A stretch of 63,588 nucleotides of DNA, filler included. It is 8 parts of 8 records of this genome, joined end to end, with 100 filler letters (N's around TTAATTAATTAA, not from the genome) between each part and the next. Parts side by side here need not be neighbours in the genome. Positions count along the whole stretch, not along the records: positions 1 to 6,308 come from SRR31156797_40704; 7 more parts are not named here. The stretch is one strand, 5' to 3'. The notes beneath the pieces were generated by a model. That model saw nothing but the letters and a program-made list of their open reading frames with translations. It searched no databases and was not told where the DNA came from. Shown here piece by piece: positions 1 to 58,428 of the stretch. The stretch's first letter is position 1; the number at the start of each line of letters is the position of its first letter. The position numbers and the translations under genes were made by a program.

Positions 1-30
1 GACTTCCGGGGTGACTTCCGGGGTGACTTC
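1..30 (-). repeat. In-frame 12-bp tandem repeat GAAGTCACCCCG (EVTP)n, cut by the contig end
   Basis: + strand reads gacttccggggt gacttccggggt gacttc, which is 2.5 copies. Confidence 0.9.
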
Positions 31-1248
31 TGATTTTCCTTTTCTGCGAAGAATCAGCACGAATGCCCCATCTTCCAATCTGAATTCCGGTTCTTTCAGA
101 TCATGCTTTTTGCAGAGCTGAATCATATCCAGAGTACCGGTTCCTGCTTTTTCGATGTACTTTGCAAGAAACAGGGGTTCTGCAATAAGAGGATTGGCCG
201 GGTGGGATGCATGAGGCTTACGCAGGCTTTCGAGAGATAAGGATGGTGGCAGTTCTCCGGGATTCCATATTTCCAGGCGGTCGGCAAAAAGCATTATCTG
301 TACACTGGCATTGCTGGTATAGTCCCGATGGGCAATTGCATTGACAATCCCTTCAGCTACAACAGCTTGTGGAATGTCATATTCCACAGGTGCTTCAGGT
401 CCCTTTTCTCTGGTACCTACTGAACGTGTAAGTTTTGACATCACGAAATCAACGGATTGGTCTACAAGATCAAAGACTGTTCCTTTATAAATTTGATAGG
501 ATGGGATAGGTTTCTGAATTTCCGTGCCGTGAAAATGCAGACATTTTACTTCAGATGTTATCAAAAATCTTTGAGGCAAGTTACCAAATAGAAGAATCGC
601 TGCATGCGATGGAACTTCTTTTTCCATGAGATTCAGGTGTTTCAAAGCATCCAGTGTAGAAGTATCTTCATGCAGTGCATATTCTCTTGCATTTCGTGCA
701 CGTGAAATGAACCATTTGATCTTTTCCAGGGAGATATCATCAAGTGTTGCACCGGAACATGCAGAGGCATCGAAGGGTCCGGTGCGAATTCTTCCTGTGT
801 GTTCAAGATACTGCACTAAGGCTGCATAGACAGCGGTTGTCAGTTCAGGCTGGCTTGAAAATCGACGACGTACAAGTTGTTCATCGGCAATTGAAATGAG
901 TTTCTCCATTTTAGGATGCCTTTCTATGGAATCAACACCTTTTATAAAAACAAATCTGGTTTTTGACGTTCTGGTAGCTTCTTCAAATTCCCTTTGGGTT
1001 GGTGAAATACCTTCTTCGTCTTCCCATCCATATTGCTCACCAAACAGAGCAAGATAGATGGTGCAGTTCTTCACTTCATCCAGATAGACCTCGTTTGCCT
1101 TCCTGTCAACAGCAGGGAGATTCTCAAACATAAAAACATCAAAGAAACGACTAAGCATTGGGTCACCACTGATAAAATCAAAAAGAGACCCGCGCTCGGA
1201 TGCAAACTCTTTCTGGACACTGCTGATAAAGATGGTGAGTCTTTTCAT
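1..1248 (-). CDS. DUF4062 domain + HATPase_c_4 ('RecG C-terminal'-like) protein, 3'-truncated by the window edge
   Basis: Not in the ORF track. Manual translation from ATG at 1248 (SD-like AGGAGTGA upstream) gives MKRLTIFISSVQKEFASER...GISPTQREFEEA (DUF4062-like) and ...EGIVNAIAHRDY...DRLEIWNPGELP...NPLIAEPL...IEKAGTG (HATPase_c_4-like). The frame is open to base 1. Confidence 0.85.
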   Translation of the reverse strand, partial: MKRLTIFISSVQKEFASERGSLFDFISGDPMLSRFFDVFMFENLPAVDRKANEVYLDEVKNCTIYLALFGEQYGWEDEEGISPTQREFEEATRTSKTRFVFIKGVDSIERHPKMEKLISIADEQLVRRRFSSQPELTTAVYAALVQYLEHTGRIRTGPFDASACSGATLDDISLEKIKWFISRARNAREYALHEDTSTLDALKHLNLMEKEVPSHAAILLFGNLPQRFLITSEVKCLHFHGTEIQKPIPSYQIYKGTVFDLVDQSVDFVMSKLTRSVGTREKGPEAPVEYDIPQAVVAEGIVNAIAHRDYTSNASVQIMLFADRLEIWNPGELPPSLSLESLRKPHASHPANPLIAEPLFLAKYIEKAGTGTLDMIQLCKKHDLKEPEFRLEDGAFVLILRRKGKSEVTPEVTPEV

Positions 1249-1375
1249 TTGAATTCACTCCTTATGATAGAGATGTGATTAAAGATTGTTTGATAACAAT
1301 AGCTTTCATGGATAATAAAGATATTTTGGAACAGGAAGGCTTTGAGGACATCGTTTGGTCGATTTCATCTCTGAA

Positions 1376-1582
1376 ATGGACCTGAGTCTTTCAGACGGAT
1401 CAGCATACACCGGTGCAATAAACACAGACGGAACAGAAGCCTCTGCACTTTCTGTAAGCATCGATGCTACAAGCACATGGACTCTCAGCGGTGACAGCTA
1501 CATTACAGAACTAAGTGGAAGTACCGAAAACATTGACCTGAACGGTTACACACTGTATGTAGATGGAGTTGCTTTCGAGTGA
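1376..1582 (+). pseudogene. Orphan 3' fragment of a secreted beta-helical/surface protein gene
   Basis: MDLSLSDGSAYTGAIN...STWTLSGDSYITEL...NIDLNGYTLYVDG resembles the C-terminal end of large secreted beta-helix proteins. There is no N-terminal part, and an oligo-T tract follows (about 1606-1640). Confidence 0.55.
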
Positions 1583-1765
1583 GTCTTTGAGGATGGAGGG
1601 GGAGTTTTCTTCTCTGTTGTTTTTTCTTTTTTTTATTATCTTCAGGCATTTCAATTCTGATACAAGCTGGTTGTAAGGGTTAAGAGAACTTCCGGGGTCG
1701 GATTACAAGTCGTGCCGGATATTGATATGTGGAACGGGGAGAATGTGCTGTTCTGCAGGGTGAGG

Positions 1766-1801
1766 AAATGGATGCCAGAGGGCATCTATTTCTTATTTTT
1801 T
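1766..1801. terminator. Hairpin plus T tract between convergent genes
   Basis: AAATGGATGCC-AGAG-GGCATCTATTT (11-bp stem with one G-U pair), followed by CTTATTTTTT. Confidence 0.45.
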
Positions 1802-1861
1802 GCCTTCAATATCTTGAAGTTGAACATTTAAGACTTACATTATCTAATAATCAACAGTCTC

Positions 1862-4465
1862 TCAATTAATATCGCATAGAGACATGTTTTCAAATTGTTC
1901 AATCAAGTGTTTAGGAGTTAATTGTGAAGATTCCAGTCCTTCTAGCAACTTAAACCTAATTGATTCTCTATTGTATCTACCAGATTGAGACCTAATCCTT
2001 CGTAATAGGCCCGTAATTGTTTCAAACATTTGTCTTATATCATCAATATGAATATAATACAAATCATCGGAATGTGCAATAGCATGGTCATCTAGTTTGT
2101 TTCTCTTCGATATAACTACGCATATCTTCTTTTTGTAATCATCATAGTTTTTGTGGTTTAACTTTGCCCATTTATAATGACCTTGGCTTTGTCTACAGGT
2201 ATCTACAGAAATTACTCCCTCTTCTTTTTCTTGACTTTTAGCTTCAAACAATATGATGATTTCATCATTTAATGTCCATACTGAATCAGGATCCGCATCC
2301 TTCCCTGGATGATAAGAATCAAAACCGAGTAATTTTCCCAAATTGGTTATTCCTTCTTCAAATGAAGAGGAATTGTCATCATAGATGTAATCGTGGAATA
2401 CTTTCATTTTTTTCTCGAATTGCGGTCCTGTTAGTTTCAGTTTATGAAGCATATCCAGAATGCTATCCATAGCATATCCTGTTAAATTATCAACGCTTTC
2501 ATGATCACTTTCTGTTTTTTCAACAGAAGAAGGTAATTCGGAAAACCAATTAATCATATTTGCACAAATTTTTGCCCTGTCAAAATATTCAATATATGTT
2601 GCTTTCCAATGACTATCTTTGGTATTAGCAAAATGAAGCAATGCAGCTGAACCAGCAAAATAATTCCATAGGGCTCTGTACCCATCAAAATCAGAACCTG
2701 AAAGTGCATCTATAATACTTTCAGCTTTTTCTACAGCTCCGGCATAGTTTTTATTCCAAAGGTCATATTCAAATTGAACTTCATTTATTACTACCTCACT
2801 TAAAGCCTTGGTTCTAGGATCATCGATTGAATCAGTCTCGTCCCTAAATGTTAGTATATTTTCCTCTGCTTCTTTCCATTCATCACCTTGTTCCATAAAA
2901 ACATTAGTTATATAAGCTAAAGTGTCGAGGTCAGCATCCTTACACTGCTCAAGACCAAAATATAATTCTGCCTGCAACTCAGGATGTAGTTTTTCATTAT
3001 TTTCTTTTGCTAAGCAGAACTCAAACAGACTACTCCCAATTGGAACAACCAAGGAATAGTCAGTTGATCCTCTTGTGCAACGGCCTGTAGCCTGAGTGAA
3101 ACGAGTAGTAACACGATCAGATAACAATGAATTCATTTCAAGTCGTGAAAGTAAAAATCCTTCTTGGAGATTTGTAAATCCAGGATATCCCACTATAAAC
3201 AGTTGACGACATGCGTCCCCTGGCAAATCAATACCATCATATCGATTAGTGAGTATAAGAACTGCTGCCTCAGATGAAGTGAACGTATCTAGTGATTCCT
3301 CAATGGACTTGGAATCATAGATATCATGAAAAATACATTCACTTTCTATATAATATTTTATTATATCTGCAATATCTTTATTTGGGCATAAAATAAGTGT
3401 TCGACTGTTTTCATTTACCATATTAGTAAGAAAATCAATATATTCACTGAAAGAATAATTATAGTCGGGGAATAGAAAAAGACGTCTACCTGATCCTTGT
3501 TTATCCCAACCATGTGGAATACTTATTCTTTCAATTTTAGGAATTCCTATTATCCTTTCTAGTTCTCCACCTGCACCTAAAGTTGCAGACATGTAAATTC
3601 TCTGAGAAGCTTGGCTAAATGGATAATGTGAGAGTGTTGGTGGGATCCAAGGCCTAATTAAAACCTCACTGCGTGAGATAAACAAATTGCATGCAAACAA
3701 ATTGTCCTGTATCGTTTTCCATGTAAAAAATAGATTTTTGTCATCAGAGGTTATGTTTTCTTCAAGTAACTCACTTAATTCATTAAGCCGCATTAAAAAA
3801 ACATGGTTTGGAACTTTTTCAATTATATTTTTAATATCAGACTGACTTCTAGTTCTTAACTGATTTACAAAAATAGATGGCAATTCATCCTCAAAAAGAT
3901 TAACTATTTTCTTAAATAAATCATGATTGAAGCTAATATTTAGTGACCACATTGAACTTATGTAACCTTCAGAACCATGTGCATCGTCACAAATGACTAT
4001 ATTTGAATTGTTGAAACGAGGATTAATGTTAAATAAAGCACTGTATGGAGCTATTGCAATAGCATCTGAATTCACATAATCGTTAAATTCTTTAGTTGGA
4101 TATTCTTTTTGTTTTCCTACAAAAGCATGAGCCTTTATACCATAAGTTTCAGCGTAAGAATGGACTTGATGAACTAGCTGCTTTGTAGGACAAAGATAAA
4201 GCACCCGTTTACCATGTTTGGTTCTATGAAATTCCCCTATTAAAAGACCGACAAGGGTTTTACCGCTCCCAGTAGGTAGTTGGAGAGCAACATCCTTGGA
4301 AGTGATGTACTCGTTATTATACTCTCTTAAAATATCTGCTTGATGAGACCATAAACTTTGTATGCTTGGATCCCTACCTTTTAAATTGCGAAAAAGAGAC
4401 TCGGGGTCATCAGCTCCATGTGACTTTAAACCAATTTTTTTAAAACTAAATTTTTTTTCTGGCAT
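1862..4465 (-). CDS. SF2 (DinG/XPD-like) helicase with C-terminal PD-(D/E)xK nuclease; Hna-like antiphage protein
   Basis: Q motif (LWSHQ), Walker A PTGSGKT, DDAH, MSATL, RYDGIDLP, QATGRCTRG, and C-terminal DPDSVW...LFEAK. The gene is visibly more AT-rich than its neighbours. Confidence 0.8.
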   Translation of the reverse strand: MPEKKFSFKKIGLKSHGADDPESLFRNLKGRDPSIQSLWSHQADILREYNNEYITSKDVALQLPTGSGKTLVGLLIGEFHRTKHGKRVLYLCPTKQLVHQVHSYAETYGIKAHAFVGKQKEYPTKEFNDYVNSDAIAIAPYSALFNINPRFNNSNIVICDDAHGSEGYISSMWSLNISFNHDLFKKIVNLFEDELPSIFVNQLRTRSQSDIKNIIEKVPNHVFLMRLNELSELLEENITSDDKNLFFTWKTIQDNLFACNLFISRSEVLIRPWIPPTLSHYPFSQASQRIYMSATLGAGGELERIIGIPKIERISIPHGWDKQGSGRRLFLFPDYNYSFSEYIDFLTNMVNENSRTLILCPNKDIADIIKYYIESECIFHDIYDSKSIEESLDTFTSSEAAVLILTNRYDGIDLPGDACRQLFIVGYPGFTNLQEGFLLSRLEMNSLLSDRVTTRFTQATGRCTRGSTDYSLVVPIGSSLFEFCLAKENNEKLHPELQAELYFGLEQCKDADLDTLAYITNVFMEQGDEWKEAEENILTFRDETDSIDDPRTKALSEVVINEVQFEYDLWNKNYAGAVEKAESIIDALSGSDFDGYRALWNYFAGSAALLHFANTKDSHWKATYIEYFDRAKICANMINWFSELPSSVEKTESDHESVDNLTGYAMDSILDMLHKLKLTGPQFEKKMKVFHDYIYDDNSSSFEEGITNLGKLLGFDSYHPGKDADPDSVWTLNDEIIILFEAKSQEKEEGVISVDTCRQSQGHYKWAKLNHKNYDDYKKKICVVISKRNKLDDHAIAHSDDLYYIHIDDIRQMFETITGLLRRIRSQSGRYNRESIRFKLLEGLESSQLTPKHLIEQFENMSLCDIN

Positions 4466-4595
4466 ATTAGCAAAGGAGCTTGCAAACTACATAAATTTTA
4501 TCATTTGTATGTGTATATATGATATATTTGCATATTTTCTAAAAAAAATCCAATTGATTGTACTGGAGTAGCAACTTTTCAGAAGATGCGACACT

Positions 4596-4604
4596 CTTAA
4601 ATAC
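4596..4604 (+). promoter_or_regulatory. Archaeal-type TATA box upstream of the leader ORF and ilvB
   Basis: CTTAAATAC. TTAAATA (4597-4603) ends 23 nt before the leader ATG at 4627, which fits archaeal TATA-to-start-site spacing. Confidence 0.55.
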
Positions 4605-4626
4605 CACCTCCCCCAATCCTAACCTA

Positions 4627-4695
4627 ATGTCTAACCCTACCACAACTCACACTTTACGCAATGTGTCTGTAGTAGTGGTAGTGCTACACGCTTGA
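4627..4695 (+). CDS. Putative Val-rich leader peptide MSNPTTTHTLRNVSVVVVVLHA
   Basis: 22 codons plus TGA, including GTG TCT GTA GTA GTG GTA GTG CTA (6 Val, 5 of them consecutive). It lies directly upstream of acetolactate synthase, like the bacterial ivbL/ilvL leaders. Confidence 0.7.
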   Translation: MSNPTTTHTLRNVSVVVVVLHA

Positions 4696-4736
4696 ACTAA
4701 CAAAAGAAACTTTTCTGGTTCAAGTGCGCTGTTTTA
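4687..4736 (+). terminator. Attenuator-like long hairpin overlapping the leader stop codon
   Basis: CACGCTTGAAC pairs with GTTCAAGTGCG, with an inner AAAAG/CTTTT stem, followed by CTGTTTTA. Confidence 0.55.
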
Positions 4737-4796
4737 TGATAACTTTACTGAATAGTGTATCCTGTGCCGGGATTGTTTCTTTCATGGAGATTTACA

Positions 4797-6308
4797 ATGG
4801 AAGAAATGAATGGAGCAGAAATATTAGTTAAGAGTCTGGAGGACCTCGGGGTCAAACAAATCTTTGGTTATACCGGGGCGGCGATACTGCCGGTTTTCCA
4901 TGCACTTGAGCAGAGTAACATCGAGATAGTTATCAATTCCAACGAGCAGTCAGCAGCATTTAGTGCAGCCGGTTATTCCCGGTCATCAGGCGATGTCGGT
5001 GTTGCCATAGTCACATCTGGACCTGCGATTACCAATACGCTGACCAGTGTTGCCGATGCCTATGGTGACAGTATCCCACTGCTTGTCTTTGCAGGGCAGG
5101 TCCCGGCACACAAGATAGGCACTGACTCGTTCCAGCATATCAATGTCGAAGGAGTCTTCGGGGATGCTGCAAAGAAGGTCATGCTCGTTTCGGATGGAGA
5201 TGACCTCGAAGCTATTGTCAAGGATGCATACTACTTTGCAATGTCTGGAAAACCAGGGCCTGTTGTCATAGATATACCACTGGATAAACAGCAGAAGATG
5301 CATGAATATCTGGACATGAACGTCATGAGGTTCGAGGAGAGCTACCACGATGACAGGCACCTGTGCGAGGAACAATGTGAAGAGTTCTATCAGATGTTCC
5401 TGAAATCACAAAAGCCACTTCTCTATCTTGGAGGAGGTCTCAACTCAGAAGCAGGAAGCCAGGCTATTCGGGAGTTCAATGAATACTTCGGTATACCTTC
5501 GGTCAACACCCTCATGGCAAAAGGTGTCATCAACGGCAACGATGATCTCAACCTCGGCATGCTCGGGATGTTCGGCACACCATACGCCAACATGCTCATT
5601 CAGGAGAACGACTTCTTCTTCGCCATCGGAGTCCGCTGGGATGACAGGGTTGCGGAAAAGGTCGGCTTTGCCATAGGCACTGACATAGCCTATATCGATA
5701 TCAATCCCGAGAAGATGCACCAGATAAAGATAGAACGTGGACCTAAATTCTCATTTATCGGAGATGCTGCCACGGCTATAATGGACCTGCTCAACTATGC
5801 GAAAAAGCATAACATCACCCTGAATATCCATGAATGGCAGCAGCGTGCCAGATCCCTGAAGAGATCCTGGCCTCTGGACCACAACCGGGAATCTGAGTAT
5901 ATCCAGTCTGCCGAGGTCATGTCTCTGCTGTCGAACTATGTTGATGGCAACACCAAGGTTACCACAGGTGTTGGCAACCATCAGATGCTTGCAGCCCAGT
6001 ACCTCCCAATGCAGAAGGCAAAATCCTTCATGAGTTCCGGTTCCTTTGGAACAATGGGCTTTTCCATGCCAACGTCCATCGGTGCCCATTATGCTAATCC
6101 CGATGCAAGGGTCATAGCCATCGACGGTGACGGCAGCCTGCGGATGAATCTGGGAGAGCTGCACACCATTGCATCGCTGAACCTGCCCATCAAGATACTC
6201 ATGCTCAACAATAGAAGTGATGGGATGGTCCAGAACCTTCAGGATGCTGCCTATAATGGAAAGAGGACCGGGACACAGAGACCGAAGGATGTCCGTTTCG
6301 CTGAGATC
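4797..6308 (+). CDS. ilvB: Acetolactate synthase large subunit (ThDP/FAD-dependent), 3'-truncated
   Basis: GAEIL..L...GVKQIFG, EQSAAF, TSGPAITN, GQVP..KIGTDSFQ, KPGPVVIDIP, LGMLGMFG, GVGNHQM, SGSFGTMGF, GDGSLRMN...NN. The ATG at 4797 follows GGAGA. Confidence 0.85.
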
Positions 6309-6408
6309 NNNNNNNNNNNNNNNNNNNNNNNNNNNNNNNNNNNNNNNNNNNNTTAATTAATTAANNNNNNNNNNNNNNNNNNNNNNNNNNNNNNNNNNNN
6401 NNNNNNNN
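6309..6408. other. Artificial contig spacer (N-TTAATTAATTAA-N); six more at 15730, 23098, 31530, 40527, 53047 and 58329
   Basis: Identical 100-bp spacers with stops in all six frames. Composition and gene content change across most of them. Confidence 0.98.
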
Positions 6409-15729: not shown

Positions 15730-15950
15730 NNNNNNNNNNNNNNNNNNNNNNNNNNNNNNNNNNNNNNNNNNNNTTAATTAATTAANNNNNNNNNNNNNNN
15801 NNNNNNNNNNNNNNNNNNNNNNNNNNNNNAAAAAATGCTACGATGAAGCTCTCTATTAAAATTACCGTTTCAACTACGTTGCCGTTCTAGGCAATTCAGA
15901 GAGTATTTACTAATTAGTTCAATCAATATTTCACAAAATTTTTTCCACAT

Positions 15951-23097: not shown

Positions 23098-23197
23098 NNN
23101 NNNNNNNNNNNNNNNNNNNNNNNNNNNNNNNNNNNNNNNNNTTAATTAATTAANNNNNNNNNNNNNNNNNNNNNNNNNNNNNNNNNNNNNNNNNNNN

Positions 23198-31529: not shown

Positions 31530-31629
31530 NNNNNNNNNNNNNNNNNNNNNNNNNNNNNNNNNNNNNNNNNNNNTTAATTAATTAANNNNNNNNNNNNNNN
31601 NNNNNNNNNNNNNNNNNNNNNNNNNNNNN

Positions 31630-40526: not shown

Positions 40527-40626
40527 NNNNNNNNNNNNNNNNNNNNNNNNNNNNNNNNNNNNNNNNNNNNTTAATTAATTAANNNNNNNNNNNNNNNNNN
40601 NNNNNNNNNNNNNNNNNNNNNNNNNN

Positions 40627-53046: not shown

Positions 53047-53146
53047 NNNNNNNNNNNNNNNNNNNNNNNNNNNNNNNNNNNNNNNNNNNNTTAATTAATT
53101 AANNNNNNNNNNNNNNNNNNNNNNNNNNNNNNNNNNNNNNNNNNNN

Positions 53147-58276: not shown

Positions 58277-58428
58277 TTGTTGAGTAATTTTAGTCTGTAT
58301 AATAAAAAAGGCCGTTCTCGCGAGAACGNNNNNNNNNNNNNNNNNNNNNNNNNNNNNNNNNNNNNNNNNNNNTTAATTAATTAANNNNNNNNNNNNNNNN
58401 NNNNNNNNNNNNNNNNNNNNNNNNNNNN

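Follow-up and report, generated by a model that had tools for sequence, protein, structure and literature searches.

Leader-peptide attenuation is a textbook bacterial mechanism. Among the enterobacterial branched-chain leader attenuators, ivbL lies before ilvBN and ilvL before ilvGMEDA, and leaders of this kind are also found at trp, leu, and his. A related four-segment logic is used by the translational attenuators of ermCL-ermC and cat, where helices 1:2 and 3:4 form by default with the gene start in 3:4, and a ribosome stalled on segment 1 allows 2:3 to form and releases segment 4. The attenuator of Corynebacterium glutamicum ilvBNC was reportedly studied by Morbach et al. in 2000. Archaea couple transcription and translation and use a eukaryote-like polymerase with termination at oligo-T; to our knowledge, a ribosome-read amino-acid gauge has so far been described only from bacteria.

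In C. glutamicum, a Val-rich leader peptide without a ribosome-binding site is described before ilvB of ilvBNC, together with a three-hairpin model (PMC11857589). The mycobacterial leaderless polycysteine sORF Ms5788A is described as gauging charged tRNA and controlling translation initiation by alternative pairing (bioRxiv 10.1101/834739). No description of leader-peptide attenuation in archaea was found in a full-text literature search, in agreement with the original prediction that the mechanism is not established there, and the supplementary sORF and uORF lists of Tufail et al. 2024 (PMC11456600) may already include the Methanosarcina uORF.

The present study concerns the 5' leader that precedes an orphan paralog of acetolactate synthase in Methanolobus and other Methanosarcinaceae. 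It holds a conserved uORF with a Val run and mutually exclusive helices, and covariation is seen in the long helix (d:e). The leader probably acts as a ribosome-read valine gauge, i.e., as a leader-peptide attenuator.

Compared with the enterobacterial leaders, the locus has in common a run of end-product codons in a short leader ORF before a gene of the acetohydroxyacid-synthase family, mutually exclusive helices that would be chosen by ribosome position, and a hairpin followed by a U tract. It differs from them in its archaeal host, its TATA/BRE promoter, its apparently leaderless uORF, a stop codon within the hairpin arm, and an extra helix predicted to mask the start codon. The 3' arm of the hairpin pairs with sequence located 3' of the U tract, so that there is no 2:3 antiterminator, and archaeal polymerases are described as terminating at oligo-T with no hairpin required. 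The present leader resembles the enterobacterial ones neither in sequence nor by any Rfam match. With Ms5788A it shares a short ORF that is leaderless there and apparently so here, a run of codons for a single amino acid, and predicted translational control of the next gene. However, the mycobacterial element is bacterial, reads Cys, and masks the SD, whereas here Val would be read, masking is predicted for the start codon with the first codons, and a conserved oligo-T tract lies 3' of the first hairpin. A Val-rich leader peptide without a ribosome-binding site ahead of an ilvB-family gene is also shared with C. glutamicum ilvBNC, but that system is described as bacterial, as transcription attenuation with an intrinsic terminator, and as acting on the canonical ilvBNC rather than on an orphan paralog. 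The four-segment logic of ermCL-ermC and cat is the same as that modelled here; the stall there depends on an antibiotic and the nascent peptide, whereas a shortage of charged tRNA at the codon run is proposed here.

Locus, host, and promoter

The window, which is the whole stretch of 63,588 nucleotides that was analyzed, consists of eight contigs joined by N linkers, and the locus lies on positions 1-6,308 (SRR31156797_40704). The features of the locus are listed in Table 1. The protein search assigned the contig by record titles to Methanolobus, family Methanosarcinaceae, with the downstream gene product being 95% identical to a Methanolobus profundi protein, which confirms the archaeal origin proposed earlier. 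A DUF4386 protein returned a Pfam match with its full length and none with a 60-residue fragment.

Table 1. Positions of the leader elements and the downstream gene in the window.
Feature	Position	Strand	Remark
Promoter: BRE-like CTC and TATA box TTAAATA (4597-4603)	4594..4603	+	TATA centre 27 nt 5' of uORF ATG; alignment column conserved
Leader ORF (putatively leaderless), 22 sense codons and TGA, peptide MSNPTTTHTLRNVSVVVVVLHA	4627..4695	+	Present in 41/43 archaeal loci
Helix a:b, CTACCAC (4637-4643) with GTGGTAG (4675-4681, within Val run)	4637..4681	+	97.5% of cells paired
Val run GTA GTA GTG GTA GTG, presumed sensing codons	4669..4683	+	Nearly invariant nucleotides
Stop-codon hairpin c:d: 5' arm 4689-4699 (GCT TGA), inner stem 4702-4706/4710-4714, 3' arm 4716-4726	4687..4728	+	
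Long helix d:e: AAAGAAAC and CTGGTTCAAGTGCGC (4703-4727) with GTATCCTGTGCCGG and GTTTCTTT (4757-4782)	4703..4782	+	RNAalifold consensus
Oligo-T tract, candidate archaeal termination or pause signal	4732..4735	+	TGTTTT columns invariant or nearly so
Apical motif TTTACTGAATAGT, loop of long helix	4744..4756	+	Nearly invariant columns
Start-codon helix e:f: TTGTTTCTTTCATG (4773-4786) with ATGGAAGAAATGA region (4795-4809)	4773..4809	+	
Acetolactate (acetohydroxyacid) synthase catalytic-subunit paralog	4797..6308	+	TPP_enzyme_N/M/C domains; cut by contig end

The TTAAATA box ends 23 nt 5' of the uORF ATG, as originally described, and a similar heptamer (at least 6 of 7 positions matching) starts at -29 to -33 from this ATG in 38 of 43 loci. 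The uORF was likewise correctly described as lacking an SD: there is no SD-like 4-mer at -15 to -4 in the window, and one occurs 5' of the uORF in only one of 43 loci. This geometry of TATA box and SD supports the leaderless translation that had been proposed, with a transcription start presumably at or next to the uORF ATG.

For a cultured relative, one contig assembled from an RNA library has its first base 1 nt 5' of the uORF ATG, crosses the T tract, and reaches 229 nt into the gene. The RNA libraries were read as assembled contigs, and the ends of these cannot prove the start or end of a transcript. The pieces from RNA run X1 stop at a graph bubble (30-nt overlap, two variant contigs), run X5 gave a 180-nt piece of low depth, and the X6 contig also spans the promoter.

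Downstream gene

The best NCBIfam match of the downstream gene was TIGR00118. A full-length orthologue scored 510.8 bits against this model, which is under the cut-off of 538.35, so that a role of the paralog in Val synthesis is a presumed one. In the window, the gene is truncated at position 6308 because the window was joined from contigs. The paralog and the canonical IlvB encoded in the same genome share 36% identity, and the best PDB relatives of the paralog are all AHAS catalytic subunits. It is monocistronic with no ilvN beside it, and the genes flanking it differ between genera. The canonical ilvB-ilvN-ilvC genes are located elsewhere; in the three genomes inspected, canonical ilvB either belongs to a cimA/leuA-like-ilvB-ilvN-ilvC cluster or follows a tandem repeat. 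A Val-rich uORF was sought 5' of canonical ilvB and of the cimA-like gene in these three genomes and was not found.

The gene is an orphan paralog of the acetolactate synthase family and not the canonical ilvB. Enzymes of this family form the precursor of Val, in keeping with the proposed valine gauge. The original prediction, which placed an acetolactate synthase about 100 nt 3' of the uORF, was right about the family and wrong about the identity as ilvB, given the score below the cut-off and the true ilvB-ilvN-ilvC at another site.

Conservation of the leader ORF

The 22-codon Val-rich ORF is present as previously described, with its ATG at 4627 and its TGA at 4693-4695, and 101 nt separate its stop from the ATG of the next gene (4797). 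A total of 43 archaeal loci were fetched, in which a uORF was counted when it started with ATG, carried at least three consecutive Val codons, and ended 91-123 nt before the orthologous gene. Such a uORF was found in all but two of them, and 42 of the 43 loci were included under a looser Val/Leu criterion. According to record titles, the loci with a Val-run uORF belong to Methanolobus, Methanococcoides, Methanomethylovorans, Methanosarcina, Methanohalophilus, and Methanohalobium. At one locus (L026), the Val run is kept and an in-frame start codon is absent. A covariance model of the leader matched 25 of 151 genomes of the order, and all 22 primary matches examined sit directly 5' of the same paralog.

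The upstream regions of the orthologues were aligned, and the ATG-started uORF with its Val run was kept in 41 of 43 loci. The Val codons are nearly invariant in their nucleotides, so that RNA pairing (helix a:b) appears to constrain the run, not codon identity alone, which counts against the gauge. The run always ends three codons 5' of the stop, and GCTTGA is invariant. The uORFs are 22-27 codons long; seven distinct gap runs fall within the uORF, each with a length divisible by three, and just three of 20 gap runs are so in the next 124 alignment columns behind it. Of the 279 Val codons in 40 uORFs, 262 (93%) are GTA or GTG, compared with 270 of 1219 (22%) in the gene behind them. Five consecutive GTN codons occurred once in one relative of 2.7 Mb and 6-22 times in five other genomes on both strands, and they were rarer than a reversed control pattern (29-83 matches) in every genome. 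Nine of these other places, in four genomes, were considered as further leaders and rejected, as each falls within a gene or on its opposite strand and does not look like a leader.

The uORF could also encode a functional hydrophobic micro-protein, or the RNA could be the target of a protein, small molecule, or tRNA, with the reading frame being incidental to regulation. Conservation of the Val run and its neighbouring columns in nucleotides beyond what the codons need would suit such a reading, and so would the conserved loop motif TTTACTGAWTAGT and the conserved TGG after the T tract. Yet free variation is seen over the N-terminal two thirds of the peptide, and the run comprises 3-8 Val across the loci; leader peptides typically behave in this way, and functional proteins do not. 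The hydrophobic stretch is also not long enough to cross a membrane. Many small ORFs without an assigned role are reported to be translated in M. mazei (Tufail et al. 2024, PMC11456600), which is in line with a micro-protein. An element acting as RNA alone would not need its frame to be kept through seven of seven distinct gap runs, and it matches no Rfam family: the Rfam 15 search of the whole window gave no match at the gathering score, and at E values up to 10 the region 4560-4840 gave just two matches at chance level (E = 3.4 and 4.9). This alternative is considered very improbable, and the leader peptide read by a ribosome is retained as the preferred reading. For that reading we infer that the uORF is translated.

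Competing helices in the leader RNA

Three of the four predicted helices are thermodynamically better than shuffled sequences when folded alone. The exception is helix a:b (z -1.68), in which changes are mostly one-sided and covariation is absent; its support is limited to conservation. The stop-codon hairpin c:d reaches -14.8 kcal/mol (z -3.61), and its core pairs are invariant across 40 sequences; compensatory exchanges were noted in the window (A-U replacing G-C) and twice in the distant locus L039. The oligo-T tract, which follows 5-6 nt 3' of the hairpin, is T4 in the window and mostly T5, sometimes T6 or longer, in the relatives.

The long helix d:e reaches -31.0 kcal/mol (z -5.71). In the alignment, 97.6% of its cells are paired, and compensatory changes were found in eight pairs and 17 cells; the score was reached by none of 500 shuffles, and slid controls were far lower. 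The long helix and hairpin c:d are mutually exclusive. None of the helices tested accounts for the conservation of the apical motif. The start-codon helix e:f (-11.2 kcal/mol, z -3.10, 95.6% of cells paired) leaves the SD of the gene, GGAG (4786-4789), at the edge of its loop and has GTTTC in common with the long helix. No compensatory change occurs in this predicted helix over ATGGAAGAAAT, because one side of it is coding. Codons 2-3 of the gene are GAA in 62 of 62 cases, compared to 432 of 950 later in the gene.

The four segments c, d, e, and f are laid out such that c:d and e:f are compatible with each other, while d:e excludes both. In the consensus folds, no conserved partner of the hairpin 5' arm (c) other than d was seen. 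An antiterminator (2:3) overlapping the 5' arm of the terminator was not found either, since the sole conserved competitor pairs the 3' arm with sequence 3' of the T tract; lying downstream of the oligo-T, this alternative helix therefore cannot act as a classical antiterminator.

A mechanism in which the ribosome selects the fold may be proposed from this layout. Hairpin c:d, with the oligo-T on its 3' side, would take its 5' arm (c) from the last three uORF codons and the stop; segment d could alternatively pair with e in the long helix, and e with the start-codon region f. With plentiful Val-tRNA, the ribosome would finish the uORF and leave, c:d and e:f would form, and the start codon would be masked; c:d with the oligo-T may additionally stop the polymerase. 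With charged Val-tRNA (perhaps also Leu-tRNA) being scarce, the ribosome would dwell on the last Val codons and cover c, upon which d would pair with e, f would be freed, and the enzyme would be made. We infer in this way the selection of the fold by the ribosome, the direction of control, and the output, which would be translation, termination, or both. The anatomy is no less compatible with control of access to the start codon than with termination.

The main output could instead be transcription attenuation, where c:d with the oligo-T terminates before the gene is reached, except when c is occupied by a ribosome that has paused on the final Val codons as the polymerase crosses the T tract, and where the long and the start-codon helices are secondary, e.g., for mRNA stability. 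A stable hairpin followed by invariant TGTTTT columns is in favour of this, as is the persistence of the hairpin, the stop within its arm, and a T-rich run in the distant L039 with its two compensatory pairs. The distance of the tract from the stem and its mere four T in the window are not. Oligo-T is named in a review as a termination signal of archaea, which is also established knowledge, but review coverage reports little evidence that terminators of M. mazei need upstream structure. A degenerate second copy (L083), which has kept the uORF, the hairpin, and the T tract and is missing segment e, again speaks for termination; the position of the sole alternative partner of d, 3' of the T tract, leaves no antiterminator in time and speaks against it. 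The RNA-library contig that bridges the T tract also argues against termination, although read-through is expected in any attenuator. Termination as the main output is regarded as rather unlikely, and it is compatible with the preferred valine gauge.

Fold modelling with and without a ribosome

The valine gauge was modelled as an ensemble over 40 leaders, with a ribosome footprint slightly wider than P-14 to P+15. In the free RNA, the pairing probabilities of c:d, d:e, and e:f were 0.80, 0.09, and 0.72, respectively. When the A site held the last Val codon or one of the next three codons, c:d fell to at most 0.02, d:e rose to 0.65-0.68, and e:f was reduced to 0.42-0.48, and in nine Methanosarcina-type leaders e:f went down to 0.05-0.19 under the same A-site positions. 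On the second-last Val codon, the flip was half complete in the model. Ribosomes on the first Val codons of the run left c:d intact. The sensor role would thus be confined, in the model, to the last one or two Val codons, and severe starvation could even favour the off state. The unpaired probability of the AUG shifted modestly from 0.44 to 0.50-0.53.

When leaders are folded one by one, the long helix is not part of the lowest-energy structure, and imposing it carries a mean penalty of 7.0 kcal/mol in the free RNA and of 4.5 kcal/mol with a ribosome on the last Val codon. The penalty is at most 1 kcal/mol in just eight of 40 leaders. In most leaders, single-sequence minimum-energy folding with a footprint of P-14 to P+15 failed to open the start codon, and the flip is visible only with the slightly wider footprint and the ensemble view.

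The same model bears on a reversed, coupling-dependent logic, in which smooth translation to the stop would block c:d in the first round and turn the gene on with plentiful valine, and an early Val stall would allow c:d and turn the gene off. The product would then be a valine-insensitive synthase that sustains Ile and Leu synthesis while valine inhibits the main enzyme. With the A site 6-9 codons before the stop, a range that includes the first Val codons, c:d stayed at 0.70-0.78, which agrees with this logic. A terminating ribosome would also cover the hairpin arm, because the stop codon lies within it, but the ribosome on the stop codon restored the start helix e:f to 0.66. That the run ends three codons before the stop, where a ribosome on the last Val codon covers half of c, would be odd if c had to stay free. 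The paralog without an adjacent ilvN and with flanks that vary by genus, as opposed to a canonical ilvB that has ilvN, would fit such a product; still, we know of no characterised amino-acid leader that is not induced on starvation. The reversed logic is considered improbable, and induction on scarcity of charged Val-tRNA remains the favoured direction for the gauge.

Implications for Methanosarcinaceae

The original prediction held that stalling at Val codons regulates ilvB. A regulatory role of the Val codons is supported at the sequence level by their conservation, the frame-preserving indels, the codon skew, and the exclusive helices, but the gene that would be regulated is the orphan paralog and not ilvB. 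The wider proposition is that in Methanosarcinaceae, including Methanosarcina, an acetolactate synthase lacking a regulatory subunit is controlled by a true ribosome-mediated attenuator, with a leaderless Val leader whose stop lies in a hairpin, a three-helix relay gating the start codon, and probably oligo-T termination as well; we judge the chances of it being correct in this full form to be about even.

Maps of transcription start sites and 3' ends of Methanosarcina have been published, and genetic tools exist for this genus; Dar et al. 2016 reportedly provided Term-seq data for M. mazei. A Ribo-seq data set of M. mazei is also published (Tufail et al. 2024, PMC11456600). Given these resources, attenuation in archaea could be tested directly on the present leader family, which is a concrete case and is strongly conserved in Methanosarcinaceae. 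In addition, a second acetolactate-synthase-like enzyme is flagged whose control is apparently tied to valine, which bears on the engineering of branched-chain amino acids in methanogens. If the proposed gauge is true, sensing of amino acids by leader peptides would not be a bacterial speciality and would work with an archaeal polymerase.

Conservation of the leader and identity of the downstream gene

The Val-rich leader upstream of the gene starting at 4797 is a real and strongly conserved element, and it is very probably regulatory. The analysis was restricted to the first contig (1-6308, G+C 0.40), the end of which truncates the gene at residue 504. The window comprises 8 contigs with G+C from 0.306 to 0.536, and given this spread the bin may mix organisms.

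Species-representative genomes were scanned with the 504-residue product, yielding 45 loci, 43 of them archaeal as labelled. The top locus, at 95% identity, is from Methanolobus profundi, and the remaining archaeal loci belong to Methanolobus, Methanococcoides, Methanomethylovorans, Methanosarcina, Methanohalophilus, Methanohalobium, and three more distant archaeal MAGs. The two bacterial loci share 25% identity. As these relatives are archaeal, so is the contig, in agreement with the original prediction. The product contains three TPP-enzyme domains and, among NCBIfam models, matches the acetolactate synthase large subunit best, although a full-length orthologue scored 510.8 bits against a cut-off of 538.35. 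All three relatives' genomes examined also encode a distinct, canonical ilvB (871-876 bits) with ilvN- and ilvC-sized ORFs behind it, and this IlvB shares 36% identity with the protein considered here. The earlier naming of the gene as ilvB thus stands at the level of the acetolactate synthase family and fails for canonical ilvB; the gene is referred to here as the paralog. Its closest solved structures are all AHAS catalytic subunits. The paralog stands alone: its neighbours in Methanolobus are unlike those in Methanosarcina, and in neither is it followed by a small-subunit gene. The divergent neighbour in the window is an 867-residue DEAD/ResIII-type helicase-like protein, for which no match to the previously mentioned DUF4062 was seen.

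No Val-rich uORF was found before canonical ilvB or a preceding cimA/leuA-like gene in the relatives' genomes checked. In two Methanolobus genomes the canonical ilvB-ilvN-ilvC cluster begins with the cimA/leuA-like gene, whose 5' region contains a conserved hairpin, GCTGCTACT..AGTAGCAG, with no amino-acid-run uORF at either site. In one Methanosarcina genome, about six tandem 22-nt units lie upstream of canonical ilvB.

Positions of the leader, its variants, and neighbouring features
Feature	Position	Strand	Remark
TTAAATA box	4597-4603	+	ends 23 nt before uORF ATG
uORF	4627-4695	+	peptide MSNPTTTHTLRNVSVVVVVLHA + TGA, read from sequence
Five Val codons	4669-4683	+	GTA GTA GTG GTA GTG, within uORF
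Segment a	4637-4643		CTACCAC
Segment b	4675-4681		GTGGTAG, within Val run
Segment c	4689-4699		contains GCT TGA
Segment d	4703-4727
Post-T-tract site	4736-4741		ATGATA
Loop motif	4744-4756		TTTACTGAWTAGT
Segment e	4757-4786
Segment f	4795-4809		contains the gene's ATG
Paralog ATG	4797	+	101 nt after uORF stop
Helicase-like neighbour	1862-4465	-
Linkers	6309-6408, 15730-15829, 23098-23197, 31530-31629, 40527-40626, 53047-53146, 58329-58428		N44-TTAATTAATTAA-N44
Variant leaders, relative loci L026 and L003	upstream of 4001 in each locus
Degenerate leader copies	L081 1501-1632, L082 1501-1626, L083 1501-1593
cimA/leuA-like gene hairpin	L085 about 2235-2262, L086 about 2420-2447	L085 reverse
Tandem units	L047 about 1190-1330	reverse	GAAATTCAGTTGAGTTCGTAAT

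Coding signature of the uORF

In the window, the uORF, its five Val codons, and the spacing of the TTAAATA box read as originally described, and no SD-like motif was found upstream of its ATG. Conservation in relatives was found as well: 41 of 43 archaeal loci have an ATG-started ORF that holds at least three consecutive Val codons and ends 91-123 nt before the paralog. Of the two exceptions, L026 keeps the hairpin, the T tract, and a Val-rich run of nine codons (eight Val, one Ala) with no in-frame ATG, GTG, or TTG, while the uORF of the distant L039 is rich in Val/Leu without VVV. L003 lacks both the usual ATG and the TATA box, and its uORF of 35 codons opens at an ATG lying 39 nt upstream of the usual site; the L026 and L003 variants may reflect misassembly or genuine variation. 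In 38 of 43 loci a TATA-like heptamer has its first base at -29 to -33 relative to the uORF ATG, and an SD-like 4-mer occurs at -15..-4 in only one.

The first two thirds of the peptides vary freely, and their end consists of a run of 3 to 8 Val, at times broken by one Leu, Ile, or Ala. The run is followed by exactly three codons and a stop in every uORF found except that of L014, where TAA directly follows the Leu codon. Alignments comprised the window and 39 loci, leaving out L003 (longer alternative start), L026, L035 and L039 (distant, gene start poorly alignable), and the two bacterial loci. All seven distinct gap runs inside the uORF are multiples of three, compared with 3 of 20 in the 124 columns between uORF and gene. 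Val codons of the 40 uORFs were GTA (177), GTG (85), GTT (13), and GTC (4), against GTC (610), GTT (339), GTA (204), and GTG (66) across codons 1-500 of the genes behind them; such a skew would be expected of a sensitive leader but is confounded by common ancestry and by RNA pairing. Runs of five GTN codons are rare in the genomes searched, with one match in one genome and 6-22 in five others, fewer than a reversed control pattern in every genome, and the other sites fetched all fell within genes or on the strand opposite them.

Searches with a 133-position covariance model of the leader gave hits in 25 of 151 genomes drawn from the order to which a Methanosarcina relative belongs, in 4 of 6 from its GTDB genus, and in 36 of 151 from the class, the last sample overlapping the earlier genomes. 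All 22 primary hits examined lie directly before the paralog. Three Methanolobus-like genomes hold a second, degenerate copy 0.8-4.4 kb from the first, preceding a gene for a 172-residue DUF4386 membrane protein; the ATG is lost from two of these copies, and the third retains uORF, hairpin, and T tract without segment e. No Rfam family matches the leader.

RNA structure and covariation

Folded alone, the window leader forms a:b, c:d (the stop-codon hairpin), and e:f (the start-codon helix) at -51.2 kcal/mol (z -3.40). Individual values were -14.8 kcal/mol for c:d (z -3.61), -31.0 for the long hairpin d:e (z -5.71), -11.2 for e:f (z -3.10), and -14.7 for a:b (z -1.68, not significant). RNAalifold of 41 leaders preferred d:e over c:d. 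In pair counts of 40 leaders, 87.5% of cells are paired in the structure with a:b, c:d, and e:f, which, its core being invariant, shows no covariation above shuffles. With d:e formed instead, 97.6% of cells are paired and compensatory changes occur in 8 pairs (17 cells); none of 500 shuffles reached any measure and every slid control was far lower. Within d:e, GAAAC:GTTTC becomes GAAAT:ATTTC in Methanohalophilus, AAAAT:ATTTT in Methanohalobium, and GGAAC:GTTCC in one Methanolobus. Compensation in c:d is seen in the window, with A-U in place of the G-C of other loci, and in L039 (GCTTAAAC/GTTTAAGT), where a TAA stop occupies the same place.

Since d pairs with either c or e, and GTTTC of e with either d or f, the segments form a four-segment relay with two alternatives, c:d plus e:f or d:e, and the uORF stop codon falls within c. 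GAA is used at codons 2-3 of the gene in 62 of 62 cases, compared with 432 of 950 Glu codons later, which fits an RNA-level constraint on f; a general gene-start preference could also explain this bias. The loop motif is nearly invariant, as is a TGG directly 3' of the T tract in most relatives. None of the helices tested explains either, and both could serve in protein binding, in pausing, or in a tertiary contact.

Following c:d, the TGTTTT columns are invariant; the tract counts four T in the window and five (at times six or more) in most relatives, and this conserved hairpin with oligo-T may add premature termination. Three points bear on this possibility: a review (PMC13675443) describes archaeal polymerases as terminating at oligo-T largely independently of structure, the T tract lies 5-6 nt from the stem, and the competing helix d:e lies downstream of it.

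The leader in RNA libraries of relatives

A query with the Methanosarcina-type leader listed 24 sequencing runs, 19 recorded as RNA, including pure-culture transcriptomes of three organisms carrying the conserved part. The evidence, in the form of assembled contigs, shows that the leader is present in RNA libraries of cultured relatives. In the culture library X15, a 414-nt contig (depth 231) extends from 1 nt before the uORF ATG across the T tract and 229 nt into the gene, and a contig of run X6 spans the promoter too. Both are consistent with a leaderless, read-through transcript, while contigs prove neither start nor end.

Ribosome modelling and proposed mechanism

Ensemble pair probabilities were computed for 40 leaders with a blocked footprint reaching 14 nt upstream and 17 nt downstream of the P-site codon's first base (P-14..P+17).

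Modelled pair probabilities by ribosome position
Ribosome position	P(c:d)	P(d:e)	P(e:f)
Free RNA, no ribosome	0.80	0.09	0.72
A site 9-6 codons before stop (first Val codons included)	0.70-0.78	0.10-0.15	0.67-0.68
A site on second-last Val	0.33	0.36	0.57
A site on last Val or three codons after	0.02 or less	0.65-0.68	0.42-0.48
A site on stop codon	0.00	0.56	0.66

For A-site positions from the last Val to the third codon after it, the nine Methanosarcina-type leaders of 26/27 codons reached 0.85-0.90 for d:e and 0.05-0.19 for e:f. In the model, the open state therefore belongs to ribosomes dwelling at the end of the run rather than merely terminating ones. Opening of the AUG itself rose only from 0.44 to about 0.52. 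In minimum-energy structures with a narrower footprint the start codon stays masked in most leaders, and forcing the long helix even when a ribosome occupies the last Val cost 4.5 kcal/mol on average (at most 1 kcal/mol in only 8 of 40).

The reading with most support is that the leader acts as a ribosome-read valine gauge and has translational-attenuator topology. When charged Val-tRNA is scarce, the ribosome would dwell on the last Val codons and cover c, so that d would pair with e, the start region f would be freed, and the synthase paralog would be made. With ample valine, the ribosome would leave, c:d and e:f would form, and the gene would be masked. This direction of control is inferred. 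A real competitor is a reversed, coupling-dependent logic in which the gene would be expressed under ample valine, because stalls early in the Val run leave c:d intact in the model; such a logic would be biologically sensible for a synthase lacking a regulatory subunit.

Leader-peptide attenuation is known as a kind, and the archaeal setting and own topology of this valine-gauge candidate set it apart. The full-text literature search found no description of leader-peptide or ribosome-mediated attenuation in archaea, and the word stem 'attenuat' is absent from a 2026 review of termination across domains. A Ribo-seq study of M. mazei (PMC11456600) places 10% of its new sORFs in 5' UTRs as potential uORFs and, outside its supplementary tables, mentions neither attenuation, valine, nor acetolactate. 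The nearest published analogue found is a mycobacterial leaderless polycysteine sORF, described as a translational attenuator (10.1101/834739). The main value of the finding is that the element occurs in Methanosarcina species (as labelled), a genus open to genetic testing.
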